Below are positions 7,083 to 40,220 of a stretch of DNA of 64,000 nucleotides, in pieces. The DNA is from Fidelibacterota bacterium (GTDB taxonomy: Bacteria; Pseudomonadota; Alphaproteobacteria; Rhodospirillales; Rhodospirillaceae), in NCBI GenBank assembly GCA_947476065.1, contig CANJPG010000006.1, positions 6,507-70,506 on the forward strand, read 5' to 3'. Below the pieces are notes generated by a model. The model saw only the letters and a list, made by a program, of their open reading frames with translations. It was not told the DNA's origin and ran no database searches. Both the position numbers and the translations under genes were made by a program. Numbering within the stretch: position 1 is the stretch's first letter; each line of letters begins with the position of its first letter.

Positions 7083-7169
<87 letters not shown>

Positions 7170-7209: not shown

Positions 7210-10176
7210 CTAGAGCGCATCGCGGCCCTGAGGGCCAACATGGGTTCGCTTCAAGTGATGGATATTCAACAAACGTGTGAGTCCGCGTTGCCGGATACTC
7301 ACTTTAAAGTGGTCCATAACAATCGCCGCCAGGACCCTATGCCCCGCATCGTTCATATGTGCGGGATCGACGAACAGCCATTCATTGGTTTGGAAGTGCG
7401 GAGCTTCGTCCATGTCCACGAACGCAATACCATGCTTCTCGCAGAGCGACCGCGCATCTTTGCGGAAGAGTTTTGCCAGGGCTTGATGCAGGTCGCTGTT
7501 GGGCTCCTTTAAATTTCCCGGCATCGCATAAAATAACCGCGCTAATTCCTGCTCGGCGGCATGAAGCCGTTTGCCGCAGGTTTGCAGCGATGGTTGTACC
7601 GCAAACACCAAATTCCGCGCGCGCGACCCAAATACGCGGCGCAGCAATATGAGCTCGCGCTCAAGCAATACTCGCATTTGAGCCCGGCGCTGGGCAAAAT
7701 CGGTCTTGTCGGATTTTGGCATTCCGCCCAGCGTTTTCTCGAAGCGGCGTTGCATCGCATAGGGAAGAAAATTCCTGTGGTCCGCTGTTGTCGCCGCAAT
7801 CGACAAAAATACGCTGCCCGTTATCCAGACCACATGGTCAATGTCGAGGGGCGCAAAAAGCTCGGCCGCCAGGCGCTCTTGGGTAAGGGTCGTTTGTCGA
7901 AGGGCAAGCGAGAGCCACGTCGTCTTCGGCATGAGCTCATTCAGCGCATTGTGCACGACCTTGGTGTCGTGGGTTGCGCCGGTGCCCCACGAAACACTGT
8001 TGCCGATGACAATTCCCTTCTCGCCGGACAGATTGGCAAATTCGGCGCGCGATATTCTCGCTCCGTCCTTGAATGACAACCTGAATCCCATGTCACCGGT
8101 ATTGGCCGACGGCGACGCGAAGTCGCCGGCCGGCGCACACATAATGTACGGCACAGGCAGGAGTGCTACGCGATCGCTGTCGGCAAACTGCGGTGAAAGC
8201 TCAGTCCGTCGCATCCGCGCGTCGGCAAGCGTGCGATTTGTAGACGGCGGCGCTGCCGTTGGTTCGGCAACGGGATGAGCGGCGATGACGGTCGCCAACG
8301 CTAATATAGAATTATAGTTCGAAGCGTCTAAGACAACGGCGTCCGGGATGGAATGACCAAAAGCGCTTTCGAGCTCTGCGAGAAGCTCAATGAAAGACAA
8401 GGAATCGACAAGGCCAAGTTCAAAAAAGGACTCATCGTCGGCCAAAATCCCCGGATTTTTATTGGCCCGCAATATTGTCGTTCTAACGGCCGCGCGCACG
8501 CGATCGAGAATGGTGTCGGCATCCCTTGGCGCAGGACCCGAAGCAGCCAAGTCTGACGGCGCAGCTTCGGCGGCCTGATCGATCTCTTCGAGGTAGCGCG
8601 TGCGATTGAGTTGACGCGAGATTTTGCCCGAGGTTGTTTTCGCAAGCCACATATGAGGTTTGATCCGCACGTCGCGGGCCGCCACGTCCGTCAGTGACAA
8701 AATTCTGCGCGAAATCTCGCTCGAAAGCGCCGCAACACTCTGGGCCGACGTTTCGGCGGATTCCGCGACTACCACGAGACCTTCTGTACCCAGCGCAACA
8801 TCGGGAACTCCGAATGCAAGGCTGCGCCCCGGAATGACTCCGGGCACGTCATCGACCACCGCCTCGATGTCCTGGGGGTACAGGTTGCGCCCGGCAACAA
8901 TGATGATGTCCTTCTCCCGGCCGAGCACATAGAGCTCGCCGCCCGATAGAAATCCGGTATCGCCCGTGAGGAAGTGGTGCTCCCTAAATTCGGCGCGCAC
9001 GTCACCGATGTAGTGCGTAAAAAGGAAAGGGGTTCTGACGGCGATTTGCCCCAAATTATTCTCAAGCAACGGCTGAAAATCCGGATTCAGGATCCTCACG
9101 GAGACGCCCTCGAGCGGGCGCCCCGAACTTGTCAGCAGGCGTTTGCCGGCCCCTTCAACATCAGCATTGATGACTGAGCCGGGCCCACTGCCCGTGGATG
9201 TGACGGCAAAAACTGATTCCGCCATGGCATAACACGCGCCCAGCGTCGCCGGCGCAACGCCGTCAAGCGTGTAGGATTTCAGGAAGGCTTTGTGGCTTTC
9301 GGAAAGTACGGGCTCGGAGCAATTGATCCAAAGGCGAACGGACGACAGGTCGATCGATTTTCCGGCAACGCGCGTAAGAAATTTATAGGCAAAGTTCGGT
9401 TGCCAGCACAGCGTCGCGCCATGGCGCGCTATCGCCGTCAATAGGAGTGCGGGGCGTCTCACCCAGTCAAAAGGTGACAGCGCAATCACCGCTATGCCCT
9501 TTAAAAGAGGAATGAAGAACGCCGTGATAAGGCCCATGTCGTGGTACAGCGGCAACCAGCTGGCAATGCGGTCACGCGGTGTTAGATCAAGGGAGCTGGC
9601 GTAGGCGTCGAGCTGATTCAGCAACATGCGATGGGTGATGCCAACGCCCTTCTTCAGCCCCGTAGTTCCCGACGAGTACTGAATGAAAGCGATGTCATCG
9701 GGTTTAGGCGGGATGGCGGGAATACTCGCGCCAAGCTCGACATCGTCCATGATTATATGCGGCGCGATCACGGTGTAGTCGGCGGCCAGTGCGGAGAAGT
9801 CGGCGTCGTCGCAAATCAGGAACCGGCAACCGCTTTGCGCTAACAGCGTCAGAAAGATTCTTTCCTGTTCGTCCTTTTTCTGCTTCACCGAACGCGGCGC
9901 GAAAGACGATGGTACGCCTCCGGCCGCCATTACACCCAGGAAACTGCTATAAACATGCGCCGCGTGGTCCAGGCAGATGGCCACGCGTTCGCCGGGACGA
10001 AGGCCGCGCTGGAGCAGCGTTGCCGACCACTTTCCCACCTCGGAACACAGATACTCGGGCGTCAGTCCCTGTTCCGATCCGTCCGCGTGGACCAGGGTTA
10101 CCCACGGCTCCTGTTGGGCACGCGCAGCTGCGGCGGCGAAAAATGTTGGGACAACGAGGTGCTCGTTCAAAGCCAC
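7210..10176 (-). CDS. tri-domain protein: fatty-acyl-AMP ligase-like adenylation domain + acyl/peptidyl carrier domain + C-terminal SGNH/GDSL-like domain
   Basis: 988-aa ORF with a GTG start and GGAG 5 nt upstream. The N-terminal domain has the AMP-binding motifs IQYSSGTTGLKKGV and WLPLYHDMGL (FAAL-like). The middle has a carrier-protein Ser motif (FFELGLVDSLSFIELLAELE). The C-terminal roughly 330 aa carry GNSVSWGTG (block I-like Ser) and VDPAHMNDAGH (DxxH block V-like). Confidence 0.8.
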   Translation of the reverse strand: MALNEHLVVPTFFAAAAARAQQEPWVTLVHADGSEQGLTPEYLCSEVGKWSATLLQRGLRPGERVAICLDHAAHVYSSFLGVMAAGGVPSSFAPRSVKQKKDEQERIFLTLLAQSGCRFLICDDADFSALAADYTVIAPHIIMDDVELGASIPAIPPKPDDIAFIQYSSGTTGLKKGVGITHRMLLNQLDAYASSLDLTPRDRIASWLPLYHDMGLITAFFIPLLKGIAVIALSPFDWVRRPALLLTAIARHGATLCWQPNFAYKFLTRVAGKSIDLSSVRLWINCSEPVLSESHKAFLKSYTLDGVAPATLGACYAMAESVFAVTSTGSGPGSVINADVEGAGKRLLTSSGRPLEGVSVRILNPDFQPLLENNLGQIAVRTPFLFTHYIGDVRAEFREHHFLTGDTGFLSGGELYVLGREKDIIIVAGRNLYPQDIEAVVDDVPGVIPGRSLAFGVPDVALGTEGLVVVAESAETSAQSVAALSSEISRRILSLTDVAARDVRIKPHMWLAKTTSGKISRQLNRTRYLEEIDQAAEAAPSDLAASGPAPRDADTILDRVRAAVRTTILRANKNPGILADDESFFELGLVDSLSFIELLAELESAFGHSIPDAVVLDASNYNSILALATVIAAHPVAEPTAAPPSTNRTLADARMRRTELSPQFADSDRVALLPVPYIMCAPAGDFASPSANTGDMGFRLSFKDGARISRAEFANLSGEKGIVIGNSVSWGTGATHDTKVVHNALNELMPKTTWLSLALRQTTLTQERLAAELFAPLDIDHVVWITGSVFLSIAATTADHRNFLPYAMQRRFEKTLGGMPKSDKTDFAQRRAQMRVLLERELILLRRVFGSRARNLVFAVQPSLQTCGKRLHAAEQELARLFYAMPGNLKEPNSDLHQALAKLFRKDARSLCEKHGIAFVDMDEAPHFQTNEWLFVDPAHMNDAGHRVLAAIVMDHFKVSIRQRGLTRLLNIHHLKRTHVGPQGRDAL

Positions 10177-10641
10177 AGAGACTCCAGACAGAACATCGGG
10201 CTCAAAACGCCGGCCCGCACGCTTGATTTAAACTAAGCCACTGATTTACTGCAGCAACCTAGCCCGATCCCTGGCACTACCCGGTTTTCCTAGGTCAGCA
10301 AGGCGAACCTGGGAAAATGAGCACTCCACCGTAGCTTTAGCGAAGGCAGGCGGGTTCCAAAACCTCTTTCTTAAGACCCTGGAGTCCGGCGCGAGATGCG
10401 CATCGGATTTTTTGTCTATCGCATCGCACAAAAGTCGTGGCTTACCGGGCCCGGGGGGAGGCCCATGGGGTTTACGCTGCGTTGAGTCCGCCGTCAAAAA
10501 AGCGGCCTAAATCCTTTGTGGTCGGGGGATGCCTATGACGTCCGCTAAAGTTCGTCTTTCGTCGCAGGCTCGGACTTTGGGTACCGCCGGTACATTCATC
10601 GGCGTCGTCCCAGATATCTACAAGGGCACGCCAAGCTTGGA

Positions 10642-11187
10642 CGCGCGGCACTCGCCGGCACAAAATTCAACTACAGCTCCGGCGAGACGCAAGCGGGTGC
10701 CGAGATGCTGCGCGGCGCCATCAAGAAACCGCTGGCGACATATTTGTCCGAGAAGATCTGGTCCAAGTACGGCATGGATGCGCCGGCTACCTGGTGGCTC
10801 GCATCCCCGGGCGGCATTGAAATCGGCGGCAGCGGCTTCAGCGCCACCTTGCGCGACTACGCGCGCTTCGGCTTGTTCATCATGAACGGTGCCCTCATCA
10901 ACGGCCAATCCATCCTGCCCGAAGGCTGGCTCGCTGAAGCAACCCCGTCCAAAACCCTCATCGGCGGGGCCTCCATAAATTACGGCTACTGCTGGTGGAT
11001 TCCGCCGGGCGGCCCGTCGCGCGAGGCCGGTGCGTTCTATTCGAACGGCATCGAGGGGCAGAACATCTCCATCAATCCCAAGGAAAAACTCGCGATCGTC
11101 ATGTGGGGCGCGCAATCGAAGCCCGGCGGCGTTGCCCCGATCAACACTTTCGATTTTTTCGACAGCGTCGTCGCGGCTTTGAAATAA
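10642..11187 (+). pseudogene. 5'-truncated serine hydrolase / beta-lactamase-family fragment (C-terminal part only)
   Basis: ORF 10705..11187 plus in-frame upstream codons read ..AGTKFNYSSGETQAGAEMLRGAIKKPLATYLSEKIW.., the Y-S-x region of class C-like serine hydrolases. No segment bearing an SxxK motif was found upstream. The frame is closed by TAA at 10546-10548. The 5' boundary is approximate. Confidence 0.6.
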
Positions 11188-11206: not shown

Positions 11207-12016
11207 TTAATGGTCCCCGATCCAGAGTTTGAACTCCTGGCCGCTCGCCACGACCAATTGATGAAGCCTGTCTAGCAGCGCCGGAGTCATCTGGGTGCCG
11301 CCTTCAACGAGAAGGCCGAAGTTGGGGTCGTAGATGTTCTCGGCCAGAACCGTGCCGACGGGAATTTGCGTCATTGGGCTTTCGCGCTTATTTTGGGGTC
11401 TTGGCGGCGGGCCGGTCCGTCTCTGATTGAGTCCCGTCGCTTCTTGGCGAATTTTCTGCAAACACTCTTGGAACTGCTGGCGCTTTGCTAATCGGCTCAT
11501 CCACATGACCCATGAGATCGGGGGGGATATGTGTTCGTTGTCCGCCGCTGAACCATCGACGCCTCCGACGGCGTGATAGTATCCGGCGGGTCTCAAGTCG
11601 ATATTGCGCCCCATTGCGGAATCGATGGCTCTGACAAGGTGATGAAATGACACCGGCTTTACGACATAGCCGTGAAGGTCGAGCGCCAACGCTGAATGAA
11701 CTCTTTCGGACTCGGCGTGCACTGTCAGCATGATGAAGGGAGTTTCCGGCGCCGTGAATTCGGCGTTTCTGGTGCGGATCGTACGAAGGAATTCGAGTCC
11801 ACTGATAGGCCCCATGCTCCAGTCGCTGATAATGCAGTCGACTTGACCGCCGGCTTTGGAGAGTACGTCGAGCGCCTCACGACCGCTTTCTGCCTCCAAG
11901 ATATTCTTCGCATGTAATCGCAACAGCATGCTCCGCAACGTCTTGCGGATGAACAGCTTGTCGTCGGCGACGAGAAACCTAATGTTGCTGAAATTGCGTT
12001 CATAGTTGGTGGTCAT
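11207..12016 (-). CDS. response regulator (REC domain) with uncharacterised C-terminal region
   Basis: 269-aa ORF. The receiver motifs are RFLVADDKLFIRK, IISDWSMGPISGLEFL and YVVKPVS. Its start overlaps the stop of the upstream kinase (ATGA at 12013-12016). Confidence 0.8.
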   Translation of the reverse strand: MTTNYERNFSNIRFLVADDKLFIRKTLRSMLLRLHAKNILEAESGREALDVLSKAGGQVDCIISDWSMGPISGLEFLRTIRTRNAEFTAPETPFIMLTVHAESERVHSALALDLHGYVVKPVSFHHLVRAIDSAMGRNIDLRPAGYYHAVGGVDGSAADNEHISPPISWVMWMSRLAKRQQFQECLQKIRQEATGLNQRRTGPPPRPQNKRESPMTQIPVGTVLAENIYDPNFGLLVEGGTQMTPALLDRLHQLVVASGQEFKLWIGDH

Positions 12017-15000
12017 GTTTGCGCACCCGTTTTGTAGACATCAATAAAATCGGCAACGCGGGCGAGTTCAGCCGGGATGCGCCGCATTACCCGGGCAACG
12101 CTGCCCATGTCTCCGGCCTTGGCGCTCAATTCCAGACTCTCATAAAGTTCGCCCAGAGCGGTGGCGCCCGCGCTTTGGGCCTCGCCTCTGGCGCCGTGCG
12201 CCGCCAGACCGAGTTCGGCCGTATTGCTGTCGCTTGCGTTGGTCTCGACGTGCTTCCAGGATGTCCAGGCCACACTGCTGAAGTCCTTCAGGTGACCAAC
12301 AACGACCTTGCGGTCGTCGGTTGCCATCAGCTCAAAGACCGCGGCCAAATGAACCGGACCCGTCGGGCGCGCCAGCGCGGCCGCATCGGGGCCGCCGCCC
12401 GAAACAGCGGGCGCCGCGTCGGCGCACAGCCATTGCAGCAAGACCGCAACCAGGCGCGCCATGATGACCGGCTTGCTGATGAAGTCGTCCATGCCGGCGT
12501 TGAAACAGGTTTCCATGTCTTCGCGGAAGGCGTTCGCCGTCATCGCAATCACCGGCATATGTGCACCGTCTGCCCCGTCCAGTTCGAGCCGGCGCAGAGC
12601 ACGCGTAAATTCATAGCCGTTCATTTTCGGCATGGAGCAATCGCACAACACGGCATCAAAGTGTTCGACGCTTTTGATTTTTTCGAGGCCTTCCAGGCCG
12701 TTCGCGGCAATAGCGCAGCTGATGCCCAGTGCCGTTAGCTGGCGCTTAATGACGGTCTGATTAACCAGGCGGTCCTCGACGACTAAAAGGGGCTTGCCGA
12801 CAAGCGCCGTGCGGTCGGCGAAGTCAACGCGATGCCCGCGCGCAAGTCTTGTAGACGCTTTCGTCGTTCCTCCTAATATCCGGCGAATGTTGCGATCGAA
12901 TGGCGGTTCAACGGATGAGTCAACCAGGAGATAGGATGCGCCGGCATGCAAGGCCCTGCGCCAATCCGGTGCCGCGCCTGCGCTCCCGGCGATGATCGGC
13001 ACCGCGCCCAACTCGCGAAGGGTTGCAGCCACCTCAGCAGCTGGCCACGCGGATCCCTGCAAGACGTGAATCGCAAGGTCGATATGCTCGCCGTTCAAAA
13101 GCGACTTTCGGCCGATCACAAGTGCGGCCTCGGAATCTTCAGCCATCAGCACAGTCGCGCCGCGGGCTTGAAAATAAGCCAGCAGCTCCCGCGGCTGCTG
13201 ACTCGACGGCGGCGCGATGAACAAAACCGTGCGGTGACTTAGGTCCGTGCGTGGTCCTGTTTGCTCCGGGGTCACCACCGGCGCCGGCAGGGTGAACCAG
13301 AACGTTGCCCCGCCGCCCGGCACGCCGTCGCAGCCGATCTCGCCCCCGAAGGTCTCAACCAAGCGCCGGCAGATCGACAAACCAAGGCCGGTGCCTTCGG
13401 TCATGTCGCTCGAACTCTTGTTGTCCTGGGTGAATGGTTCGAACAACTCGTCCGCTTTCGCGGCGTCGAAACCTCTGCCGGAGTCGTGAACGGCAAACAG
13501 CAGATGACAGATATCACCGTCCCACGCCTTGACGGAAAGACGCATATGCACGCCACCTGCAGCCGTGAACTTTACGGCGTTGCCGAGCAGATTGAGCAAG
13601 ATTTGGCGTATGCGGGTGGGATCGCCCTTGATGGTGGCCGGTACGCCCGCGCCAACCGAGGCGCTAACCTGTATGCCCTTTTGCCGAGCGCGGCTCTGGA
13701 CAATGTCGACGGCTTCCTGGATGACGAGGTCGGGCTCTACATCGACATTTTCGACCGCAAGCTTGCCCGCCTCGATCTTGGAGAAATCGAGCACGTTACC
13801 GATGAGGGCCAATAGCGATTTGGCGGCCTTATCGGCGTCGAACAGCAGTTCTTCCTGCTCCGGCGCCAGATCAGACTGCGCCAGCAATTCAAGGTTACCG
13901 ATGACGCCGTTCAGAGGTGTGCGTATTTAATGACTCATACTGGCAAGGAATTCGGACTTGGACCGATTGGCGGCGGTGGCCGCGGCCGTCGCGCTGGTTT
14001 CGCGCTCTCTTGCATGTTTCTGAGCATTCAGCGCCTGTTTCGCTTGCTGGGTCAAAGTCACGCCCGCTATCGCCAAAATGACGATGCCAAAGGCCTCGGC
14101 AAGGCGTACCAGCAGAAGTATCTTTTCCTGACGTGCCGCCTGCTGTTCGAGCAAGGCGTCCTGCTCGGCGTCCATTAAGCCGATGGTGGCGCGAATTTGA
14201 TCCATCAACGACGCGCTTTCGCCGCCTCTGAACAATGCGGCCGCCGCCGCGGCGTTCATTGTGCGCGCGATAGCAAGCGATCCCCGCAATTCCACAAGTA
14301 TGGCGTCTACCCGCACACCGATCTCGTCGAGGTGCTGGCGCTGTGGTGTGTTGTTGCGGGCCTGGTCATTGATGTCGCGTAGAGAGCCGTCGAGAGTCGC
14401 GGCTGCGTTTTCGAAGTACGTAACGTACTTTTCCTCACCGGTCAGAAGAAACCCGCGCTGCCCGGCCTCGGCCCCTTCTAGCGACGTCAGCATGCGCTCG
14501 ACGTCGAACTGGGATTCACGAATCTTCGCCGTCACGTTGATCGAAGATCGAATTTGCTCTTCGCCCCAAAACGACGCGCAAATTATAACCACGAGCGTTA
14601 TGAACGCTCCGGTCAACATTGGCAGACTGAACGGCAATTCTGAACGCGTGAACATGTCGCGACGAATGACCACGGCCATGATGCCGTGGTGAGGATGGGT
14701 CCAAAGCAAACCGAGCGATAGGATAAGACAGACGGCTGCGCTGTGCAGACCCACGGGGAAATATCTGGCGATGGCAATCGCAGCAATCACGGCGGCGCTC
14801 AGGGCGCAAATTTGGCCAACGGACACCAACCTTCGGCTGGGGCCGGCCAAGCATATGAGGGCGGCCCCAAGGAAGAAAAGGCAAAGCGCAGTATTGGGCG
14901 CCATTTGATTGGTGACGGATGAGGTATGCTCGGCGAGCTGTCTCGTGAACAAGAGACGATCGATGCCGATATTCACGTGGGAGAGAAGCTCGATAAATTT

Positions 15001-15435
15001 TCCCATGCCGACGGCCGCAACGATTACTCCGATGAAACGGCTTAGCGAAACCATCACCGAAAAGCCGTGCCGTGCCGCGTATGTCAGGCCGATCAGAGCG
15101 AGTCCGAGGAGAGCAAGGCAGGCCGCCGTCGCCGGATTCATGGCGACCTGCAGAGGCAGGACCCGCTTCAGGGCTTCGATGTTGATGATCCAGCCGGTCA
15201 GCGCGATTGCGCCAATGACCGCAGCGCAGACCCCGGCGATAAGCGGAACTGCGCCGGGCGTTGCGCGGCTCGTCGGGAGCGCGGACTCACGTTCCTGGGC
15301 TATCTGGTCTAAGACAGCAACGGTTAAGAAGTCGGCCATCTGCATTGCTCCTAACTTGCTCGTGCACATCAAGATTTTTCGAAGAGTGGAAAAGGCGCGC
15401 GCACCTTCCCATAGCAGCGTTTGCCGCGCCCACAC
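12013..15435 (-). pseudogene. hybrid sensor histidine kinase (multi-TM, CHASE3, HisKA, HATPase, pseudo-receiver, REC, Hpt) interrupted by a single in-frame TAA
   Basis: ORFs 13927..15435 and 12013..13887 are in the same frame. Across the junction the minus strand reads FLASMSH-TAA-IRTPLNGVIGNLELLAQSDL, an H-box with a stop where Glu is expected. CHASE3-like GAEAGQRGFLLTGEEKYVTYF is present. HATPase motifs GNAVKFT, DSGRGF and GTGLGLSI are present. REC has LLVVEDRLVNQ..CDCSMPKMNG..ISKP. Hpt has AAHGARGEAQSAGA. The N-terminal start is uncertain. Confidence 0.85.
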
Positions 15436-19365: not shown

Positions 19366-20238
19366 GTGCCGTTCACCTCTGCCCTCGATATTTTCTCCGG
19401 CGTCACCGGCCGCGTCATCGTCACCGGTGTCGGCAAAAGCGGCCACGTCGGCCGCAAGATTGCCGCCACGCTTGCCTCTACCGGCACGCCAGCATTTTTT
19501 GTGCACGCGGGCGAGGCCAGCCACGGCGACCTCGGCATGATCGCCAAGGGCGACGCGGTGCTGGCGATTTCCAATTCCGGCGAGGCCGGCGAATTGCACG
19601 ACATTGTCGGCTACGCCAAGCGCTTCGACATCCCGCTGGTGGCGATCACCAGCAAAGCCGGCTCGACACTCGCGCAAGCGGCAACGATTGTGCTGCTGCT
19701 GCCGCCGGTGCCGGAAGCCTGCCCCATGGGTCTGGCCCCCACCACCTCGACCACGCTGACGCTCGCGATGGGCGATGCCTTGGCCGTGGCCCTTCTCGAG
19801 CGCCGCGGCTTCACCGCCGACGACTACAAGGTCTTTCACCCCGGCGGTCACCTGGGGCGCAAGTTATTCAAGGTCGAAGATCTGATGCATGGCGGCGACG
19901 AGTTGCCGCTGGTTCAGGTCAGCACCTCGATGTCCGATGTCGTGCTGGTCATGACGAACAAGACCTTTGGCGTCGCAGGTGTGGTTGATGCCGGCGGCCG
20001 TCTCGTGGGCATCGTCACCGACGGCGATCTGCGCCGCCACATCCGCGGCGATCTGTTCAAGCTCGTGGCCGGCGACATCATGACCAAAGATCCCAAGACC
20101 ACAGCGCGCAATATGCTAGCCGCCGAAGCCATGCGGCGCATGAACGACTGGAAGATCACCAGCGTCTTCGTCGCCGAGGATGGCAAGCCCGTCGGCATCC
20201 TGCGCATGCACGACATTTTGCGCGCGGGTGCCGTATGA
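19366..20238 (+). CDS. kpsF: arabinose-5-phosphate isomerase (KpsF/GutQ family: SIS + tandem CBS); true 5' end probably upstream
   Basis: The SIS motif is GRVIVTGVGKSGHVGRKIAATLASTGTPAFFVHAGEASHGDLGMI. CBS pairs lie in the C-terminal half. The in-frame upstream codons (..SSDGIAAARRVFETAKEGLEALSAGLG) look like the conserved KpsF N-terminal helix, but no ATG/GTG/TTG lies in that frame between 19186 and 19366. Confidence 0.85.
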   Translation: MPFTSALDIFSGVTGRVIVTGVGKSGHVGRKIAATLASTGTPAFFVHAGEASHGDLGMIAKGDAVLAISNSGEAGELHDIVGYAKRFDIPLVAITSKAGSTLAQAATIVLLLPPVPEACPMGLAPTTSTTLTLAMGDALAVALLERRGFTADDYKVFHPGGHLGRKLFKVEDLMHGGDELPLVQVSTSMSDVVLVMTNKTFGVAGVVDAGGRLVGIVTDGDLRRHIRGDLFKLVAGDIMTKDPKTTARNMLAAEAMRRMNDWKITSVFVAEDGKPVGILRMHDILRAGAV

Positions 20239-21029
20239 GCCCCGATACCTCCAAGCCCACCGCCGATACCCCCTCCAGTTCCGCGTCCGGGCCCCGCTCC
20301 AACCAAGGCCCCAACCACGAAGCCGACAGCGTCACGATCTGGCAGCTGCGCCAGACCGAAGTTGGGCAATCGGTCGCCCAGTACAGCCGCTTCGTTTCGG
20401 CGATGAAACTCGCGCTTCCCGTGGCTGCCGGCATTCTCTTGTTGCTGGTGGTGGTGCTGCCGCAGTTCCGCGACGACGACGCCCGCTTTCGTATCGGCAT
20501 GGATCTCGTCAAAGGCTCCAGCAACGACACGCTGAGCATGACCAACGCGCGCTACTTCGGCACCGACGAAAAGGGCCAGCCCTATTCCGTGACCGCCCAG
20601 GGCGTGCGCCAGCACACCAAAGATGACAACGCCATCGACCTGGTTTCGCCCAAGGCCGAAATCAATCTTACCAACGGCACCTACCTTCAGGCTGCCGCCT
20701 CGCAAGGTCTCTACGACCGCGCCAAGGAAAAGCTCGATCTTTCCGGCGAAGTGACGGTGTTCCAGGATCAGGGCAATCAGATCAAAACCAGCCAGGCCAT
20801 GGTCATGCTGAAGGCCGGAACCGCCACGGGCCGCCAGCCGGTCAGCGGCGAGGGTCCCTACGGCACCATGCAGGCCGATGGTGGTTTTGATATGTCCGAG
20901 AACGGTCGCACGATGAAATTCCTAGGCCCGGCCCGCGTGACATTCAATCCCGACGCCAAAACAAAATCCGCGGCGCAACCGAGTCCTGCCGCTCCCCCTT
21001 CCGCGCCACAGGCCCAAACCAAACCATGA
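20235..21029 (+). CDS. lptC: LPS export system protein LptC (with Ser/Pro-rich N-terminal extension)
   Basis: Its ATG overlaps the kpsF stop (ATGA). It has a single TM (LALPVAAGILLLLVVVLP) followed by an OstA-like beta-jellyroll region. It sits in the conserved position before lptA. Confidence 0.75.
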   Translation: MSPDTSKPTADTPSSSASGPRSNQGPNHEADSVTIWQLRQTEVGQSVAQYSRFVSAMKLALPVAAGILLLLVVVLPQFRDDDARFRIGMDLVKGSSNDTLSMTNARYFGTDEKGQPYSVTAQGVRQHTKDDNAIDLVSPKAEINLTNGTYLQAAASQGLYDRAKEKLDLSGEVTVFQDQGNQIKTSQAMVMLKAGTATGRQPVSGEGPYGTMQADGGFDMSENGRTMKFLGPARVTFNPDAKTKSAAQPSPAAPPSAPQAQTKP

Positions 21030-21937
21030 GTATGTTCAGATCCCTCCTCGTTCTTGTCGCCGTTGTCGCGGGTGCATTCAACGCGCCGGCCCATGCGCAA
21101 TCACTCAAGTTCGACGGCGGCGAGCGCCCGATTGATGTCACCGCCCAGGTCGGCATTGAATTGCAGCAGGACAACAAACGCGTCATTGCGCGCGGCAATG
21201 CCAAGGCCGTGCAGGGCGACGTCACAGTGACCGGCGACGAGCTAATCGCCGACTATCGCACCAAGGCCGACGGCGCCAGCGAGGTGTACCGTGTGTTCGC
21301 CAGCGGCAGCGTCGTCATGAAGTCCGCCAGCGAAACCGCTACCGGTGATTCGGCGATCTATGATTTCGACAAGGGCGTGCTTGTGCTCGAAGGCAAGCTG
21401 GTAACGCTGATAAATCCCGAAGGCTCGGTCACCGCCCATCAGGCTTTGCAGTATTGGTCTAACGAACGTGTCGCCGTCGCCGAAGGCCAGGCCTTCGCCG
21501 AAGACAAAGACAAGCGCCGCCTGCACGCCGACAAGCTGATCGCGTTCTTTAGGGAAGACACCACACCCGCGGCCAAAGGTGCGACCAAAACCGCTTTCGC
21601 CGCAAATCGCGGCGATATCAATCTTATCCAGGGCTTCGGCAACGTGCGCATGGAGACGGAAAAAGAAACCGTGCGCGGCGACCGCGGCACCTACAATCTT
21701 GAAACCGGCATTGCCACCCTCGACGGCGGTGTCAAAATCACGCAGAACAACAATCAGCTCGGCGGCGGCTTTGCCGTGGTCAACGTCAAGGGCGGCACCA
21801 GCCGCCTTTACGCCAGCGCCAAGGAAGCCGGCATGTCGGGTGTGAAGGAAAATGGACGGGTCTCGGCGCTGATTGCGCCCAGCCCGAAGCAGACGTCCGC
21901 GCCTTCCGCTGCGCCGGCTAAAGAAGGACAGAAATGA
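21026..21937 (+). CDS. lptA: LPS transport periplasmic protein LptA (OstA-like), long form
   Basis: The signal peptide is MSMFRSLLVLVAVVAGAFNAPAHA. OstA-like repeats are present (ARGNAKAVQGDVTVTGDELI; GNVRMETEKETVRGDRGTYN). It is overlap-coupled to lptC and lptB. Confidence 0.8.
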   Translation: MSMFRSLLVLVAVVAGAFNAPAHAQSLKFDGGERPIDVTAQVGIELQQDNKRVIARGNAKAVQGDVTVTGDELIADYRTKADGASEVYRVFASGSVVMKSASETATGDSAIYDFDKGVLVLEGKLVTLINPEGSVTAHQALQYWSNERVAVAEGQAFAEDKDKRRLHADKLIAFFREDTTPAAKGATKTAFAANRGDINLIQGFGNVRMETEKETVRGDRGTYNLETGIATLDGGVKITQNNNQLGGGFAVVNVKGGTSRLYASAKEAGMSGVKENGRVSALIAPSPKQTSAPSAAPAKEGQK

Positions 21938-22713
21938 CGCCTGATACGGTAAACGACATGGGCGCTGGGGCGGCAACACAGCCCGGGTCCGACGCGGGCC
22001 TAGTGGTGCGCAATCTCGGCAAGCAGTTCAAGGGCCGGCCCGTGCTGCGCGATGTCAGCCTGTCGGTGAAGCGCGGCGAAGCCGTGGGCCTCTTGGGTCC
22101 GAACGGCGCCGGCAAGACCACGTCGTTCTATTGCGTCACCGGCCTCATCAGCCCCGACCAGGGCAAGATCTACCTCGACGGCCAGGACATCACGCCGCTG
22201 CCGATGTACCGGCGCGCGCGCCTGGGTATCGGTTATCTGCCCCAGGAAGCCTCGATCTTTCGCGGCATGACGGTTGAAGGCAACATCCGCGCCGTCGCCG
22301 AAGTCGTCGAGACCGACAAAGCTGCCCAGAGCGCGCTGGTCGATGCCCTGCTGCGCGAGTTCTCCATCGACCACCTGCGCCGCTCGCCGGCCCTGGCGCT
22401 GTCGGGCGGCGAGCGCCGCCGGTGCGAGATCGCCCGCGCCCTGGCCTCGCGGCCCAGCTTCATCCTGCTTGACGAGCCCCTGGCGGGCATCGATCCCATT
22501 GCTGTGGGTGAAATCCGCGAGATGGTCTCCCACCTCAAGGACCGCGGCCTTGGCGTGCTGATCACCGACCACAATGTCCGCGAGACCCTCGACATTATCG
22601 ACCGCGCCTACATCCTTCACGAGGGCACCGTACTGTTCGAGGGCAGCCCCTCTGAAATCGTGGCCCATGAAGGGGTTAGGCGCGTGTATTTGGGCGAACG
22701 ATTCAGCCTTTAG
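21934..22713 (+). CDS. lptB: LPS export ABC transporter ATP-binding protein LptB
   Basis: Walker A is GPNGAGKTT, the signature is LSGGERRR and Walker B is ILLDEP. It sits in the conserved position before rpoN. Confidence 0.92.
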   Translation: MTPDTVNDMGAGAATQPGSDAGLVVRNLGKQFKGRPVLRDVSLSVKRGEAVGLLGPNGAGKTTSFYCVTGLISPDQGKIYLDGQDITPLPMYRRARLGIGYLPQEASIFRGMTVEGNIRAVAEVVETDKAAQSALVDALLREFSIDHLRRSPALALSGGERRRCEIARALASRPSFILLDEPLAGIDPIAVGEIREMVSHLKDRGLGVLITDHNVRETLDIIDRAYILHEGTVLFEGSPSEIVAHEGVRRVYLGERFSL

Positions 22714-22848
22714 GCGACCGCGTCACCGAATTCTTAAACATTTTCCTTAAAAGTGGACCGGTTCTTGCATAAGCCGGTGCCTTCTGATTTCTAGGGGGCC
22801 GAGCTTTCGCAGATCAGTGCGGAAATCCCGAGCCGGTGACCCTTTTCC

Positions 22849-24357
22849 ATGGCCCTCGCGCCACGTTTAGACCTGAGGCAGAGCCAAAGCCTCGTCATCA
22901 CGCCCCAGCTCCAGCAGGCGATCAAACTGCTGCAGTTGTCGGCGATTGAGCTGGCGGAATACGTCGAGCAGGAACTCACCTCCAATCCACTTCTCGAAAC
23001 CGACGACGCCGGCGAGACCGGCGCGCTGACGGAAAGTGCCGGCAATGCCGATGATCGCCAGGGTGACGATCTGTCGGTGGTTGATGCCGTCGACGGCCAG
23101 ACCGATGCGCCTCTGGACGTGGAATCGTCCATATCCGACAGCAATTCGGCCCTGGGCGATGACGGCAGCGACCGGGGCGGCATGGATACCCACAACGCCG
23201 ACAATTGGAATGGCACCAGCATGTCGGGCGACATGCCCGATCTCGAGCGCACTTTGGCCGATACCCCCGACCTGCGCAGCCATCTCATTCAGCAGCTCAA
23301 TCTATCCGTGACCGCACCCGCCGAACGCTTCATCGGCGTGTTCCTCATCGATCAGCTCGACGAGAGCGGATACATGCGCATGAGTCTCGCCGACGCCGCC
23401 GAGCAACTCGGCACCGATGTGCCGCGCATCGAACGCGTGCTCGCCCTGCTGCAGCGCTTCGACCCCGCCGGGGTCTTCGCGCGCGACTTGAAAGAGTGCC
23501 TGCGTCTGCAGCTGGAGGACCGCAACCGCTTCGACCCGGCGATGGCGGCCTTCATCGCCAACATCGAATTGCTGGCGGCGCGCGACATCAAGAAGCTGCG
23601 CGAGATTTGCGCCGTGTCGATGGAAGACCTGCAGGACATGATCTCCGAGGTGCGCGCCCTCGACCCGAAGCCCGCCCTGAAATTTGAGCGCTCCATCACC
23701 GAAGCGGTGATCCCCGACGTCATCATGTCGCCGCGCCCCGACGGCAGCTGGCGGATCGAGCTTAATTCGGACACCCTGCCGCGCGTGCTCGTCAACCGCA
23801 GTTATATCAGCGATATCGGCCGCGGCGGTGTCACCAAAACCGACAAGGACTTCCTCGCCGAAAAGCTTCAGTCCGCCAATTGGCTGGTGAAGGCCTTGAA
23901 CCAGCGCGCGGAAACGATCCTGAAAGTGGCGACCGAACTCGTCAAACAGCAGGAGGCTTTCTTTCGTCTCGGCGTGCAGCACCTGCGCCCGCTGATTCTG
24001 CGCGATGTCGCCGACGCCATCGAGATGCACGAAAGCACCGTCAGCCGCGTGACCACCAACAAATACATGGCCACGCCGCGCGGCATCTTCGAGCTGAAAT
24101 ATTTCTTCACGCAAGGGTTGCCCTCGGCCCACGGCGCCGACGCGCATTCAGCCGAGGCTGTGCGCCACCGCATCAAGATCCTGATTGATAACGAAGCCTT
24201 GACCGACGTGCTGTCGGACGACCGCATCGTTGACATCCTGCGCACCGACGGCGTCGAGGTCGCCCGGCGCACTGTCGCGAAGTACCGGGATTCGCTCAAT
24301 ATTCCCTCCTCGGTTCAGCGGCGCCGCGACAAGGCGGCCGGCTACACCGGGCGTTAA
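22849..24357 (+). CDS. rpoN: RNA polymerase sigma-54 factor
   Basis: The N-terminus is MALAPRLDLRQSQSLVITPQLQQAIKLLQLS. An acidic region follows. The C-terminal RpoN box ARRTVAKYR is present. Confidence 0.95.
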   Translation: MALAPRLDLRQSQSLVITPQLQQAIKLLQLSAIELAEYVEQELTSNPLLETDDAGETGALTESAGNADDRQGDDLSVVDAVDGQTDAPLDVESSISDSNSALGDDGSDRGGMDTHNADNWNGTSMSGDMPDLERTLADTPDLRSHLIQQLNLSVTAPAERFIGVFLIDQLDESGYMRMSLADAAEQLGTDVPRIERVLALLQRFDPAGVFARDLKECLRLQLEDRNRFDPAMAAFIANIELLAARDIKKLREICAVSMEDLQDMISEVRALDPKPALKFERSITEAVIPDVIMSPRPDGSWRIELNSDTLPRVLVNRSYISDIGRGGVTKTDKDFLAEKLQSANWLVKALNQRAETILKVATELVKQQEAFFRLGVQHLRPLILRDVADAIEMHESTVSRVTTNKYMATPRGIFELKYFFTQGLPSAHGADAHSAEAVRHRIKILIDNEALTDVLSDDRIVDILRTDGVEVARRTVAKYRDSLNIPSSVQRRRDKAAGYTGR

Positions 24358-31983: not shown

Positions 31984-33747
31984 ATGCAGCATGCCCCTGA
32001 CGCAGCGCCCGTTTTGCGCCCGACCCCCAGCGATACGCCCAGCTTGCCCAAGCGGTTGGCCGACTTTGCAACCCTCAGCGAAGCCTTGGATTACGCCGGG
32101 AAAAGCGACACCGGATTCAACTTCTATTCGGCACGCGGCGAGCTTGAGAAAGTGCTGCCATTCCGCGACCTGCGCGACCAGGCCGCCAGCCATGCCCGGC
32201 GCCTGGCCGCAGCCGGGCTCAAGCCTGGTGACCGGGTTGCTTTGCTGGCCGCTACGGCGCCTGAATTCCTGATCCTGTTTTTCGCCTGCCAATACGCCGG
32301 GCTCATTCCCGTGCCTATGCCGCTGCCGACCGCTTTCGGGCGGCGCGAAGCTTACATCGATCAAATCAAAGGCCAGATGCTGTCCTCGGGCGCGCGCATG
32401 GCCTTGGGTCCCGCCGAGTTCCTGCCCTTTGTGCATGAAGCGGCGGCGGGCCTGCCGATCCAGCTTATCGGAACGCTGGCCGATGTCGCGGCTTTGCCGG
32501 AAGGCAACGGCGAGCTGCGCCCCGGCGGCACCGACGATCTCTCCTACATTCAATACAGCTCCGGCTCGACGCGGTTTCCCATGGGTGTGATGGTGACGCA
32601 TAAGAGCCTGCTCGCGAATTGTCATGCCATGAATAAGTACGGCATCGACAATCGGCCCGGCGAACGCGCCATGTCCTGGCTGCCGTTCTTCCACGACATG
32701 GGCCTAGTGGGTTTCATGCTGGGCGGCGTCACCAGCCAGTCGTCGATCGACTATCTCAGCACAGAGGATTTTGCGCGCCGTCCACTGACTTGGCTGAAGA
32801 TCATCAGCGATAACGGCGCTTCGCTGTCTTATGCGCCATCGTTTGGCTACGAGCTTTGCGCGCGGCGTGTCTCCAACATGGCCGAAGGTGCGCTGGATCT
32901 TGACCTCTCGAAGTGGCGCGTCGCTGGCATTGGCGGCGAGATGATCAAGCCAAAAGTCATGCAAGCCTTCGCTGCCGCCTTCAAGCCATATGGATTTTCG
33001 GACAAAGCCTTCTGCGCCAGCTATGGCCTTGCAGAATCTACGCTGGCGGTCAGTTTTGCGCCCGTCGGCACCGGCATCAAAGCCGATCACGTCGATAAAG
33101 CCGCCCTCGAAGCCCATCGCGCCGATCCGGTCGCGGAATCCGAAGGCCGCACCTTCGTCTCCTGCGGCCGCGTGTTGCCCGCGCACAGCGTCGAAGTACG
33201 CGACGAGGCCGGCGCTGTTCTCGGCGCGCGCCAAGTGGGCCGTGTGTTTGTGGCTGGCCCCAGCATCATGCAGGGCTACTTCAATAGTCCTGCGGAGACC
33301 GCCGAATGTCTGCAGAACGGCTGGCTCGACACCGGCGATCTTGGCTATTGGCTGGATGATGAAATCGTCATCGTTGGCCGCGCCAAGGATATGATGATCA
33401 TCAACGGCCGCAACGTCTGGCCCCAGGACATTGAGTGGACTGTGGAACACATCGACGGCCTTAAGTCCGGCGACAGCGCCGCCATTCTGCTGGCCGACGC
33501 CGACGGTGTCGAACGTCCCACCATTCTCGTACAATGCCGCCCGTCCGATCCGGCCGAGCGCGCCCGCGTCGCCGCCGACGTGCGCGCCCGCGTGCAGGAA
33601 GCCGTCGGCATTGCCTGTGACGTCGTGCTGGTGCCGGCGCGCAGCCTGCCCAAGACGACCTCCGGCAAACTCGCCCGCGGTCGCGCCAAGACCATGTTCA
33701 TCGCCGGCGCAATCCCGGTGCTCCCGGCTACGCCACCGGCCGCGTAA
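31984..33747 (+). CDS. fatty-acyl-AMP ligase / acyl-ACP synthetase-type adenylating enzyme
   Basis: 587-aa ORF with YIQYSSGSTRFPMGVMVTH, WLPFFHDMGLVG (FAAL-like) and GWLDTGDLGY..GRAKD. It is the first gene of the four-gene operon ending in spt. Confidence 0.85.
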   Translation: MQHAPDAAPVLRPTPSDTPSLPKRLADFATLSEALDYAGKSDTGFNFYSARGELEKVLPFRDLRDQAASHARRLAAAGLKPGDRVALLAATAPEFLILFFACQYAGLIPVPMPLPTAFGRREAYIDQIKGQMLSSGARMALGPAEFLPFVHEAAAGLPIQLIGTLADVAALPEGNGELRPGGTDDLSYIQYSSGSTRFPMGVMVTHKSLLANCHAMNKYGIDNRPGERAMSWLPFFHDMGLVGFMLGGVTSQSSIDYLSTEDFARRPLTWLKIISDNGASLSYAPSFGYELCARRVSNMAEGALDLDLSKWRVAGIGGEMIKPKVMQAFAAAFKPYGFSDKAFCASYGLAESTLAVSFAPVGTGIKADHVDKAALEAHRADPVAESEGRTFVSCGRVLPAHSVEVRDEAGAVLGARQVGRVFVAGPSIMQGYFNSPAETAECLQNGWLDTGDLGYWLDDEIVIVGRAKDMMIINGRNVWPQDIEWTVEHIDGLKSGDSAAILLADADGVERPTILVQCRPSDPAERARVAADVRARVQEAVGIACDVVLVPARSLPKTTSGKLARGRAKTMFIAGAIPVLPATPPAA

Positions 33748-34697
33748 TGGCACTCCCCGTCGTCGCGGTCACGGGTGCGACCGGCTTCATCGGCCGGCGC
33801 ATCGTGCGCGCGCTGGTGGACTACGGCTGCGACGTGCGCGCACTGGCGCGGCGCACTTCGGCCCTCGCACAGGAGGAAACCACCGATGCGGTCACCTGGG
33901 TGATCGGCTCTCTGACCGATGAAAACGCGCTGAACGCCTTGGTGAAGGACACCATCGCCGTCGTGCATTGCGCCGGCGCCATCAAGGCCCAGAACCGCGA
34001 CGCTTTTCTGGCCATCAATGGGGCGGGCACCCGCCGTCTGGCCGAGATCGCCGCCGCCCAACCGGTGCCGCCGCGTTTCATCCTATTGTCGTCGCTGGCC
34101 GCCCGCGAACCGCGGCTGTCGGCTTACGCAGCCAGCAAACGCGCCGGCGAGCAGGCCCTGCGCGGCCTCAAGGGCCGGCTGCCGTCGATCATTCTGCGCC
34201 CGCCCGCGGTCTACGGTCCTGGCGACCTGGAAACCCTCAAGGTCTTCCAGATGGCCGCCCGCGGCTTCATCGCCGCCCCCATGGTCGCGGGGGCCCGGGC
34301 GTCTTTGGTGCATGTGGACGACGTTGCCCGAGCGGTGCTGGCGGCCCTGGAACTCGACAGCCTCCCCGACCAGCCCATCGAGTTCGATGACGGCACCCCC
34401 GGCGCTTATAGCTGGGCCGAGATCGCCGCCGCCGCCGGCGCGGCCTTGCGCACCACCCCCCGCCTGATCCCAGTGCCGGCTCCAATCCTCTACCTGGCCG
34501 GAGCCCTGGCGAGCCTCTCAGCCGCTCTGACCCATCGGCCGGGGGTAATGTCCTGGGGCAAAGTGCCTGAATTACTGCATCCGGACTGGGTCGCCGCCGA
34601 TGGCCTATTCCCGGGCTATAAGCCCCTCTGGGATATAGAAAAAGGCTTTAAAGATGCGGTCACCTGGTACACCTCACGGGGCCTGTTAACATCGTAA
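33747..34697 (+). CDS. NAD(P)-dependent extended SDR (candidate ceramide/3-ketosphinganine reductase)
   Basis: The Rossmann motif is VAVTGATGFIGRRIV and the catalytic motif is YAASK. Its start overlaps the stop of the preceding gene. The functional assignment rests on gene context only. Confidence 0.7.
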   Translation: MALPVVAVTGATGFIGRRIVRALVDYGCDVRALARRTSALAQEETTDAVTWVIGSLTDENALNALVKDTIAVVHCAGAIKAQNRDAFLAINGAGTRRLAEIAAAQPVPPRFILLSSLAAREPRLSAYAASKRAGEQALRGLKGRLPSIILRPPAVYGPGDLETLKVFQMAARGFIAAPMVAGARASLVHVDDVARAVLAALELDSLPDQPIEFDDGTPGAYSWAEIAAAAGAALRTTPRLIPVPAPILYLAGALASLSAALTHRPGVMSWGKVPELLHPDWVAADGLFPGYKPLWDIEKGFKDAVTWYTSRGLLTS

Positions 34698-34818
34698 CGG
34701 CTGAGTTGATTTGTAACCTTTTCGTCATTCCCCCACTCTGAGCCTTAGCACCTGCAACATAATTGCCGTTTCGAAGCGCAGGGGCGGACGAGGAACGTTT
34801 CAGGATGGGGTTTAGGAC

Positions 34819-35076
34819 ATGAGTGGCGGCACGGAGCCGTCGGCCGAAACCCTCACGGCGCTCTACGACATCCTGGAGACGTTCAACAAGACCGGCGCCG
34901 CGTTCGCGCCGGGGACCCGGTTCAGCGAAGACCTGAACTTTGATTCCCTGGTCGTGATGGAGTTCGTGGCCGTTGTTGAGGATGCCTTCGATATCTCGAT
35001 ACCCCTCAACATCCTGCCGGACATTGCGACGATTAAGGACTTGGCGGTGGCGGTCGAAAAGATCGTCGCTGAATAG
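34819..35076 (+). CDS. dedicated acyl carrier protein
   Basis: 85-aa acidic ORF with the phosphopantetheine Ser motif LNFDSLVVMEFV. Confidence 0.8.
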   Translation: MSGGTEPSAETLTALYDILETFNKTGAAFAPGTRFSEDLNFDSLVVMEFVAVVEDAFDISIPLNILPDIATIKDLAVAVEKIVAE

Positions 35077-35125
35077 ACCACCGGCTCCGGATCGAGTTTT
35101 GGTTCAATTGTTAGAGGACTAATAC

Positions 35126-36370: not shown

Positions 36371-36393
36371 TATATTAAGGTTTTGTGGCCATC

Positions 36394-36424
36394 AACGCCG
36401 GGATTAGTCCCGGCGTTTTTGTTT
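36394..36424 (+). terminator. rho-independent terminator after spt
   Basis: The hairpin AACGCCGGGA-TTAG-TCCCGGCGTT is followed by TTTTTGTTT, 24 nt after the spt stop. Confidence 0.8.
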
Positions 36425-36434
36425 GTGCTAAAAC

Positions 36435-38778: not shown

Positions 38779-38950
38779 ATGCTGTGTGGCGCAGAGGTTT
38801 TAACAGCCTACGCTATATCCTTAACGTGTTGGGATGGTATGAAAAAGCCCCACTGGCTCCCCCGGACCGCCTCGCCTACACTCCCGAGTGTTAAGGCTGC
38901 TCGCGACGGGGGTGCGGGGGGCTCGCCCGACCCTTGCCGGCAGTGGATAT

Positions 38951-40210: not shown

Positions 40211-40220
40211 GCCTTTCCAT

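Follow-up and report, generated by a model that had tools for sequence, protein, structure and literature searches.

A three-domain gene on the reverse strand

The window analysed here (the whole 64-kb stretch of contig CANJPG010000006.1) contains a gene that joins three domains in a single chain of 988 amino acids, hereafter the query: an adenylation domain resembling fatty acyl-AMP ligases (FAALs), a phosphopantetheine-binding carrier domain, and a domain of the SGNH fold related to CgnD, an enzyme of crocagin biosynthesis. A first-pass annotation made from the sequence alone had described a single open reading frame (ORF) of this kind, and that description holds. The ORF is intact, it begins with GTG, and its ribosome-binding site, a GGAG Shine-Dalgarno sequence, precedes the start by 5 nt. 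All motifs that had been listed were located in the translation, with SSGTTG at residue 168, YHDMG at 211, DSLS at 591, GNS at 725 and DPAH at 937. The gene and its parts are as follows.

7210..10176 (-): FAAL-like, carrier and CgnD-like SGNH fusion gene; 988 codons, GTG start, uninterrupted
8557..10176 (-): adenylation (ANL, FAAL-like) domain, residues 1-540; SSGTTG 168, YHDMG 211, TGD 404, GREKD 419, SGK 516
8278..8511 (-): carrier (phosphopantetheine-binding) domain, residues 556-633; attachment Ser592 in DSLS, codon 8401-8403
7303..8244 (-): CgnD-like SGNH-fold domain, residues 645-958; putative catalytic Ser727, Asp937 and His940
7996-7998 (Ser727), 7366-7368 (Asp937), 7357-7359 (His940) (-): candidate catalytic codons
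7213..7302 (-): C-terminal extension of 30 residues (VSIRQRG...RDAL), specific to the query relative to 958-aa alleles

An identical 988-aa protein is already public (P0001) and belongs to a 90% identity cluster of 13 members. The 958-aa alleles of this cluster end at ...VMDHLK*, as do all other homologues, and the query reads 30 codons beyond that point, through the stretch ...VMDHFKVSIRQRG...DAL*. A scan of 19-residue windows over the 988-aa protein revealed no transmembrane segment, in line with the first reading, and the protein has no signal peptide; the most hydrophobic 19-mer (213-233) is a buried helix that follows the YHDMG motif. The full-length structural model consists of three well-folded domains with low-confidence linkers at residues 542-547 and 639-645, and has a predicted template modelling score (pTM) of 0.60. 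Apart from the neighbouring tRNA, no riboswitch or other Rfam family was found between 6800 and 11300, and promoter and terminator scans around the gene gave results at chance level only.

Domain assignments and conserved residues

The adenylation domain is best described as FAAL-like, because FAAL matches among solved structures and NCBIfam models outrank the amino-acid adenylation model. Pfam AMP-binding (PF00501) covers residues 21-389 above the gathering score (E 6.7e-51). The closest PDB relatives over residues 35-530 are the FAALs 3kxw from Legionella (E 1.2e-50) and 3pbk from E. coli (8e-49), followed by FAALs that load polyketide synthases (PKS) and by FadD32. The top NCBIfam models are the FAAL models PRK07768 and PRK09192 together with models of long-chain ligase subfamilies, at E of about 1e-76 and all under their curated cut-offs; the amino-acid adenylation model TIGR01733 reaches only 1e-30, and no DltA model is present among the 25 best NCBIfam matches. 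The proposal of a FAAL-type adenylation domain is thereby borne out by the nearest solved and modelled relatives. Conservation was counted over 45 full-length homologues with 30-63% identity, in all of which the ANL motifs (168, 404, 419 and 516-518) are invariant.

The carrier domain is recognized by Pfam PP-binding (PF00550) at residues 568-626 (E 4.8e-10, 40 bits against a cut-off of 20.8 bits), and it forms a helical bundle in the full-length model. Gly588, Asp591 and the attachment residue Ser592 are invariant among the homologues, as expected from the carrier proposed at first. Because the carrier is fused to the adenylation domain, acyl transfer to the phosphopantetheine arm is likely. 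No ketosynthase, condensation or thioesterase domain was detected in the 30 window ORFs scanned or in the homologue loci. The earlier statement that no MBOAT, condensation or thioesterase gene is nearby also stands for these 30 Pfam-scanned ORFs, which include those within 10 kb of the gene.

For the C-terminal domain, the Pfam model Lipase_GDSL_2 (PF13472) fell short of its 32.9-bit cut-off, with 22.4 bits, or 27.2 for the domain by itself, and matched block V only, and the SGNH assignment therefore needed other evidence. A profile built from 26 homologous domains matched CgnD (PDB 8a2n) at E 5.6e-51, the two aligned stretches together spanning about 288 of 335 profile positions, and the same profile reached ordinary SGNH esterases only at E 0.17-1.4. 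The AlphaFold model of the domain, built on the 26-domain alignment, has a mean local confidence (pLDDT) of 90.5 and a pTM of 0.88. In a Foldseek search with this model CgnD ranked first (E 1.9e-19, TMq 0.73, TMt 0.85, 24% identity). With a threshold of E <= 1e-3 the search gave 57 matches. Almost all of the best 50 were GDSL/SGNH enzymes, namely lipases, phospholipase A1, esterases, thioesterase I (E. coli TesA; 1ivn and 1u8u) and a few SGNH acyltransferases (8zbc, SsfX3 3skv and MsAcT 2q0q). As modelled, the domain has the SGNH fold, of flavodoxin-like type with three layers, and profile and model agree in placing it in the CgnD subfamily. The three-domain reading thus rests on Pfam for the first two domains and on the CgnD profile and the AlphaFold model for the third.

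A likeness to DltD or to AlgX and AlgJ had also been suggested, and this part fell away: no such Pfam family matched at E <= 10 and none appeared among the 50 best structures. With no family match, no MBOAT gene and no signal or transmembrane segment, this type was rejected, and the comparison with the Dlt pathway is an analogy of logic with no homology.

Eleven positions of the C-terminal domain are invariant (P662, G697, R699, G725, S727, G733, D737, R760, E875, D937 and H940). Block I reads G-N/S-S, and its Ser727 is kept in all 45 full-length homologues and in one standalone protein. The block II stretch has the form (A/S)-x-R-(A/Q/G)-(S/T), in which Arg760 is invariant but no Gly, the block II residue of the oxyanion hole, is. 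Block V is DPAH at 937-940, with both Asp and His invariant, so that the putative catalytic Ser and His picked out at first are conserved throughout. Ser727 and Asp937/His940 align with the block I Ser and the DxxH of CgnD, whose triad was reported as Ser79, Asp325 and His328 (PMC10070186) and by our own count falls at 81, 326 and 329 in the chain numbering of 8a2n. CgnD is the only solved and the only studied member of the subfamily. There is no Pfam or NCBIfam model for it, and a standalone member matched no NCBIfam model.

Distribution and genomic setting of the family

An exhaustive profile search with the C-terminal domain over 1.84 billion representatives returned 2318 proteins at E <= 1e-3, 753 at E <= 1e-10 and 351 at E <= 1e-30, the last being clusters at 50% identity. 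A word-indexed search with the same domain as a single query retrieved one standalone protein only (P0121), so that the family becomes visible only by the exhaustive profile search. Most CgnD-like proteins are standalone, with 300-380 aa, and fusions of 930-1030 aa make up about 20 of the 150 best. The CgnD-like domain stands behind a FAAL-carrier pair in 48 of the 120 best clusters. The sources of these fusions are Rhodocyclales, Magnetococcales, Azospirillum and Nisaea, together with many metagenomes, and at source they are annotated only as 'AMP-binding protein', 'fatty-acyl-CoA synthase' or 'non-ribosomal peptide synthetase'. The architecture for which a database search had been recommended therefore recurs in many proteobacterial and metagenomic genomes. 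A scan of a genome collection with the full-length alignment gave 80 loci, all of them FAAL-only and none with a CgnD-like domain.

Two sister architectures share the front of the protein. In the first, of about 850-900 aa (for example P0054 from Minwuia, and P0100), the FAAL-carrier part is followed by a hexapeptide domain of the left-handed beta-helix (LbH) fold; these proteins are 38-45% identical to the query over about 63% of its length, that is over the FAAL-carrier part, at E of about 1e-125 to 1e-135. Enzymes of the LbH fold, such as LpxA, LpxD and PglD, are transferases that depend on acyl-ACP (acyl carrier protein) or acyl-coenzyme A (CoA), and are not hydrolases. In the other (P0048, P0057, P0058 and P0087), the FAAL-carrier part precedes a domain of about 330 aa with the motifs LILGSS...(D/N)xAH, i.e. 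GSS...DxxH; this domain has no Pfam, PDB or CgnD-profile match, and it may be another SGNH-like transferase domain.

Published surveys describe FAALs that are stand-alone or fused to ACP, to modules of PKS or of nonribosomal peptide synthetases (NRPS), to lysophospholipid acyltransferases or to aminoadipate reductases (PMC8460268, PMC11837247), and neither of the two reports an SGNH or hexapeptide fusion. A full-text search joining FAAL with SGNH found no paper, in a literature coverage outside which most subscription journals lie. The FAAL-carrier-SGNH combination, with a CgnD-type domain behind the carrier, appears to be undescribed and uncharacterised.

Eleven homologue contexts were sampled. 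The query clade comprises the query and P0002-P0008, with full-length identities of 43-63%. Outside it, each of the five fused members sampled is situated in a locus for surface filaments or sugars. The Rhodocyclales fusion adjoins a gene for a prepilin-type protein, type II secretion E and F genes, two genes of the radical S-adenosylmethionine (SAM)/SPASM type and a CmcI-type methyltransferase gene; the Magnetococcales fusion is flanked by a radical-SAM/SPASM gene and a CmcI methyltransferase gene; and a fusion on a 1-Mb contig sits within a flagellar cluster (flagellin, FlbT, FlaF, FlgE/K). In Azospirillum soli the fusion belongs to a nonulosonic-acid cluster with two copies of NeuB, a CMP-transferase, an aminotransferase, a PglD-like protein, a GNAT protein, a free ACP and NeuC, and in Nisaea it comes after a CMP-sugar pathway. 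One standalone copy has two flagellins, FliD and FliS/T next to it, and is itself flanked by radical-SAM/SPASM and CmcI genes.

A radical-SAM/SPASM gene is present in four of the five distant fused loci. Those of L002, L004 and L006 are orthologous (47-63% identity), as are their CmcI-type O-methyltransferases (49-56%). Radical-SAM/SPASM genes also occur at L005 and L090, the L005 copy being 21-24% identical to those of L002, L004 and L006. Side by side with pilin or flagellin genes, a trio of a radical-SAM/SPASM gene of about 275 aa, an SGNH gene and a CmcI-like gene is seen in three distant taxa (L002, L004 and L006/L007). Its SGNH member is the CgnD-like protein, with or without the FAAL-carrier part, and its methyltransferase resembles rhamnosyl O-methyltransferase; no NCBIfam model exists for the radical-SAM or the SGNH member. 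Separate ACP and AMP-dependent synthetase genes, with a putative role, have been described in flagellin glycosylation islands of Aeromonas (PMC7874193). A full-text search on flagellin glycosylation, ACP and AMP-binding found no paper that joins them, again with most subscription journals outside the coverage. The acceptor of the distant members is probably a nonulosonic-acid-type sugar or a flagellar or pilus filament protein.

The relatives within the query clade sit in other surroundings. Two come after an mreBCD-pbp2-rodA operon, two between pgk and pyk in a tkt-gap-pgk-pyk-fba cluster, one among recR and rmuC, and one after a GT61 gene. A metagenome scan with a clade-specific alignment gave three loci, which confirmed the pgk|pyk insertion site and showed no partner gene. 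The query itself is flanked by the tRNA-Leu on one side, as noted from the start, and on the other by the remnant of a beta-lactamase-family gene, then a response regulator and a CHASE3 hybrid kinase.

7083-7169 (+): tRNA-Leu(CAG), convergent with the fusion ORF and 40 nt from its stop; context only
10650..11187 (+): beta-lactamase-family serine hydrolase remnant, C-terminal half (Pfam positions 159-314 of 329), upstream and divergent

Searching the 64-kb window by tblastn with the radical-SAM/SPASM, CmcI-methyltransferase and other neighbours of the homologues gave no match, and near the query there are no precursor peptide, CgnB-, CgnC- or CgnE-like or dioxygenase genes. The clade has retained the catalytic triad together with the carrier Ser and every ATP motif. 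To judge from these comparisons, it appears to have left the filament-glycan setting as an offshoot consisting of one gene.

A location in lower-GC DNA had been reported from two hand counts (59/120 and 44/60), both of which are exact, and the composition of the whole gene is indeed atypical. Its GC content is 0.579 and its GC at third codon positions (GC3) 0.658, compared with 0.627 ± 0.025 and 0.798 ± 0.049 in the 33 further ORFs; none of the 34 ORFs measured in the window has a lower GC3, and the neighbouring regulator and kinase genes have values of 0.68-0.71. The horizontal acquisition deduced from those counts survives in part. It fits because of the low GC3 and the differing insertion sites of the relatives; against it, the window holds no second tRNA-Leu 3' end and no integrase or transposase, and no att repeat or other meaningful direct or inverted repeats flank the gene. 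Horizontal acquisition is therefore likely but unproven.

Several further observations concern the clade and the window. At L091 (8348-9337, -), a standalone CgnD-like paralogue of 329 aa is convergent to the gene of the fused protein P0008 and shares 45% identity with the fused domain. In its block I (GNG) the nucleophile Ser is replaced by Gly, and the DxxH is conserved. The paralogue may be a partner without catalytic activity; CgnD is a dimer. For P0007, a 318-aa gene without assignment occupies the position that matches the L091 paralogue. About 470 nt without a convincing ORF precede the beta-lactamase remnant (10177-11187, +). A link between this remnant and a beta-lactamase gene located after the L089 homologue was dropped, the query-side fragment being unrelated to that gene. 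The CHASE3 hybrid histidine kinase (12013-15435, -) has an in-frame TAA at 13927-13929, at the Glu of the H-box (FLASMSH*IRTPLNG); the halves are otherwise in one frame, which means either a pseudogene or a sequencing error.

Elsewhere in the window, positions 31984-38778 encode an AMP-binding protein of 587 aa, a 316-aa NAD epimerase/reductase, a serine-palmitoyltransferase-like class I/II aminotransferase of 414 aa, and a short ACP-like ORF (34819-35076; 85 aa) that contains a DSL motif; a gene resembling diacylglycerol kinase follows. The set is a second, unfused load-and-carry system in the window, and it resembles the alphaproteobacterial ceramide synthesis cluster. The order kpsF-lptC-lptA-lptB-rpoN, with lptF/lptG further along (19366-24357 and 38888-41297), is an ordinary lipopolysaccharide-transport and sigma-54 neighbourhood and suggests a proteobacterial chromosome.

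Proposed reaction, rival explanations and related systems

We propose, at roughly even odds (a probability of about 0.5), that the query is a cytoplasmic, one-chain and CoA-independent enzyme which would activate an acid, hold it on a tether and hand it on via Ser727 to an acceptor. The FAAL-like domain would adenylate a carboxylic acid with ATP, a fatty or hydroxy acid being more likely than an alpha-amino acid, and the acyl group would then move to the phosphopantetheine arm on the enzyme's own Ser592. The SGNH domain would transfer it from the thioester onto Ser727, with His940 and Asp937 acting as base relay, and an amine or hydroxyl acceptor would finally resolve the acyl-enzyme to give an amide or an ester. 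The domains and their folds, the invariant catalytic residues, the recurring architecture and the domain swap in sister proteins are shown; the way in which the acyl group travels, its transfer in place of hydrolysis, and the kinds of acid and acceptor are inferred. In placing a C-terminal catalytic domain after adenylation and carrier domains, the protein has the order of a loading module with an off-loading domain behind it. The main argument for reading the C-terminal slot as an acyl-accepting transferase is that the sister proteins swap an LbH domain into it. The chemistry of CgnD runs via an acyl-enzyme at an amide bond (PMC10070186), and the reverse direction would therefore give N-acylation.

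Six points weigh against this proposal. CgnD, the only characterised relative, is a very slow hydrolase that is not labelled by phenylmethylsulfonyl fluoride (PMC10070186). The Asn that block III contributes to the SGNH oxyanion hole is missing, so that this hole has been remodelled in the query clade: the query reads TGSV (786-789), with Val in the Asn place, and the seven closest homologues likewise have a hydrophobic residue there. Block III is SGxN in CgnD and in 33 of the 37 more distant homologues, the remaining four having Asp, and to judge by this alignment the loss of the Asn could weaken or alter catalysis. The FAAL-specific insertion, normally about 20 residues within the N-terminal domain and named by the first-pass annotation as a feature to look for, proved to be nearly deleted, with a 16-residue gap against 3kxw at its site and, in the family alignment, about 5 residues in the query compared with 20-30 in most members; it is shortened in several relatives of the query as well. 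Strict rejection of CoA is therefore not assured. The full-length model, at a pTM of 0.60, yields no dependable domain-domain geometry, so that its inter-domain docking is unreliable. In all six query-clade contexts sampled the neighbours are unrelated housekeeping genes, with no linked acceptor gene. Finally, a 99%-identical metagenomic contig (L092) carries TAG for GAG at codon 372 (L092 2620-2622, corresponding to window 9061-9063), which splits the gene into ORFs of 371 and 584 aa. The gene is therefore dispensable in at least some cells, and together with the 958-aa alleles this makes it an accessory gene that is variable in the population and intact here. The TAG-split ORFs, whether a natural or an assembly variant, are also seen as P0123 and P0129.

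An explanation that reverses the first steps has the SGNH domain free an acid as an esterase, lipase or amidase, after which the FAAL domain would load it onto the carrier and a partner encoded elsewhere would take the acyl group. CgnD is a hydrolase and the nearest structures after it are lipases, phospholipase A1 and esterases. The lipothrenin FAAL LitD, ACP LitF and GDSL-like lipase LitG are also neighbours, and the lipase has been proposed to recruit the fatty acid (PMC10616846), a role that is itself a proposal. The position of the SGNH domain after the carrier and the parallel FAAL-carrier-LbH proteins favour a downstream transferase instead, and no acyl-carrier-accepting partner is linked in any query-clade locus, which makes this course of events unlikely.

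To the same degree we doubt that the domain acts as a cis thioesterase, which would release a modified acid or clear mis-loaded ones while an enzyme in trans does the useful chemistry. SGNH enzymes do include thioesterases, among them the TesA/thioesterase I structures matched here (1ivn, 1u8u), and the radical-SAM and methyltransferase genes beside the distant relatives are possible modifiers of a tethered substrate. Yet no such tailoring genes are linked in the query clade, and if the orphan query were to hydrolyse what it has activated, ATP would be spent in a futile cycle; the parallel LbH fusions, moreover, cannot be hydrolases.

Less probable still is that the genes of the query clade are remains of the filament-glycan system, transferred singly, deprived of their partners and left with little or no present function. 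Much of what was described above could be read in this way: the block III Asn lost in the clade, the FAAL insertion mostly lost in the query and several relatives, the orphan context, the lowest GC3 measured in the window, the stop codon loss that leads to the 30-aa tail, the TAG allele at codon 372, and, as neighbours, the hydrolase remnant and the histidine kinase gene that is interrupted in frame. However, the ATP, carrier and triad motifs are all kept down to 43% full-length identity, in intact ORFs of 926-989 aa, which neutral decay would not be expected to leave, and the pgk/pyk insertion is kept in two diverged genomes.

A Dlt-like D-alanylation or aminoacylation in one chain, with the adenylation domain activating an amino acid and the SGNH domain in the part of the likewise SGNH-like DltD, shares the identical logic of three activities, but it is the least likely rival and a very improbable one, given the FAAL-type adenylation domain (FAAL models at E 1e-75 or better against 1e-30 for TIGR01733, and no DltA model in the best 25), the lack of any DltD or AlgX Pfam match and of a nearby MBOAT (DltB) gene, and the cytoplasmic location of the query protein as opposed to the extracytoplasmic DltD.

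A fuller version of the transferase proposal is more tentative, and we would sooner expect it to fail in some part than to hold as a whole. According to it, the query would be a minimal, stand-alone ATP-driven acylation machine with a single FAAL-carrier module, off-loaded by a CgnD-type SGNH domain, a type known until now only as a peptidase. Acting as transferase, this domain would attach the acyl group by an amide or ester bond to a sugar, a protein or a small molecule, with no need of CoA, PKS or NRPS. The wider family would supply the missing enzymes by which unusual acyl groups reach flagellin or pilin glycans (nonulosonic acids), and the query clade would be a transferred single-gene offshoot with a new acceptor. 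If the transferase reading is true, it adds a third ending for FAAL-carrier pairs besides the hand-over to PKS/NRPS and the PlsC-type fusion. A sizeable SGNH subfamily without a family model, in which one member has been studied among 351 clusters, would also gain its first role in the cell, and the distant members beside flagellin, pilin or nonulosonic-acid genes would become candidates for the attachment of non-acetyl acyl groups to filament glycans. For the query itself, one soluble polypeptide should suffice to test all of the load-carry-transfer sequence in vitro.

Among known systems the closest comparison is with CgnD itself (8a2n, Chondromyces crocatus), which is homologous to the query's C-terminal domain over nearly its whole length and shares the block I Ser, the DxxH and a conserved Arg in the block II position. 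CgnD slowly removes the leader peptide in the biosynthesis of crocagin, a ribosomally synthesised and post-translationally modified peptide (RiPP) (PMC10070186). Unlike the query, it is a standalone protein of 348 residues from a RiPP operon, acts by cleaving a peptide bond, and has the block III Asn in place (SGVNN). In the query, the domain comes after fused adenylation and carrier domains, Val replaces this Asn, and there are no RiPP neighbours.

FAALs with a fused or partner ACP (3kxw, 3pbk, FadD32 and the PKS/NRPS loading enzymes) resemble the query in their motifs and in the carrier that directly follows, but the query's FAAL insertion is about 16 residues shorter than that of 3kxw. Typical bacterial FAALs always occur in a PKS/NRPS context according to one of the two surveys (PMC8460268 or PMC11837247); the query lacks such a context and has an SGNH domain instead of a ketosynthase or condensation domain. 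The FAAL-carrier-LbH proteins (P0054, P0100) carry the query's cassette and likewise one extra catalytic domain, which is a left-handed beta-helix and not SGNH, and they too are uncharacterised. The group II islands of Aeromonas resemble the context of the distant fused homologues in that a load-and-carry pair lies by pseudaminic-acid genes and flagellins; there the genes are separate and no CgnD-like SGNH protein is reported, and the query lies outside such an island.

The closest parallels in logic are systems that adenylate, tether on a carrier and transfer without CoA, as proposed for the query. In the Dlt pathway, which handles amino acids, DltA, DltC, DltB and DltD are separate proteins, with a membrane MBOAT and an extracytoplasmic, SGNH-like DltD. 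AlmE, AlmF and AlmG, again as separate proteins, bring glycine onto lipid A, AlmG being of the lysophospholipid-acyltransferase family. None of the Dlt or Alm families was detected in the query. Aas (2-acylglycerophosphoethanolamine acyltransferase/acyl-ACP synthetase) combines an ANL domain and an acyltransferase in one chain. It and the fusions of FAAL-like domains with lysophospholipid acyltransferases agree with the query in being single chains for acyl transfer independent of PKS/NRPS; the Aas type uses a PlsC-type transferase and the cell's own ACP in trans, whereas the query has its carrier built in and an SGNH domain as candidate transferase. The single parts of the query are of known kinds, and the logic that joins them has precedents in Dlt, AlmEFG and Aas.

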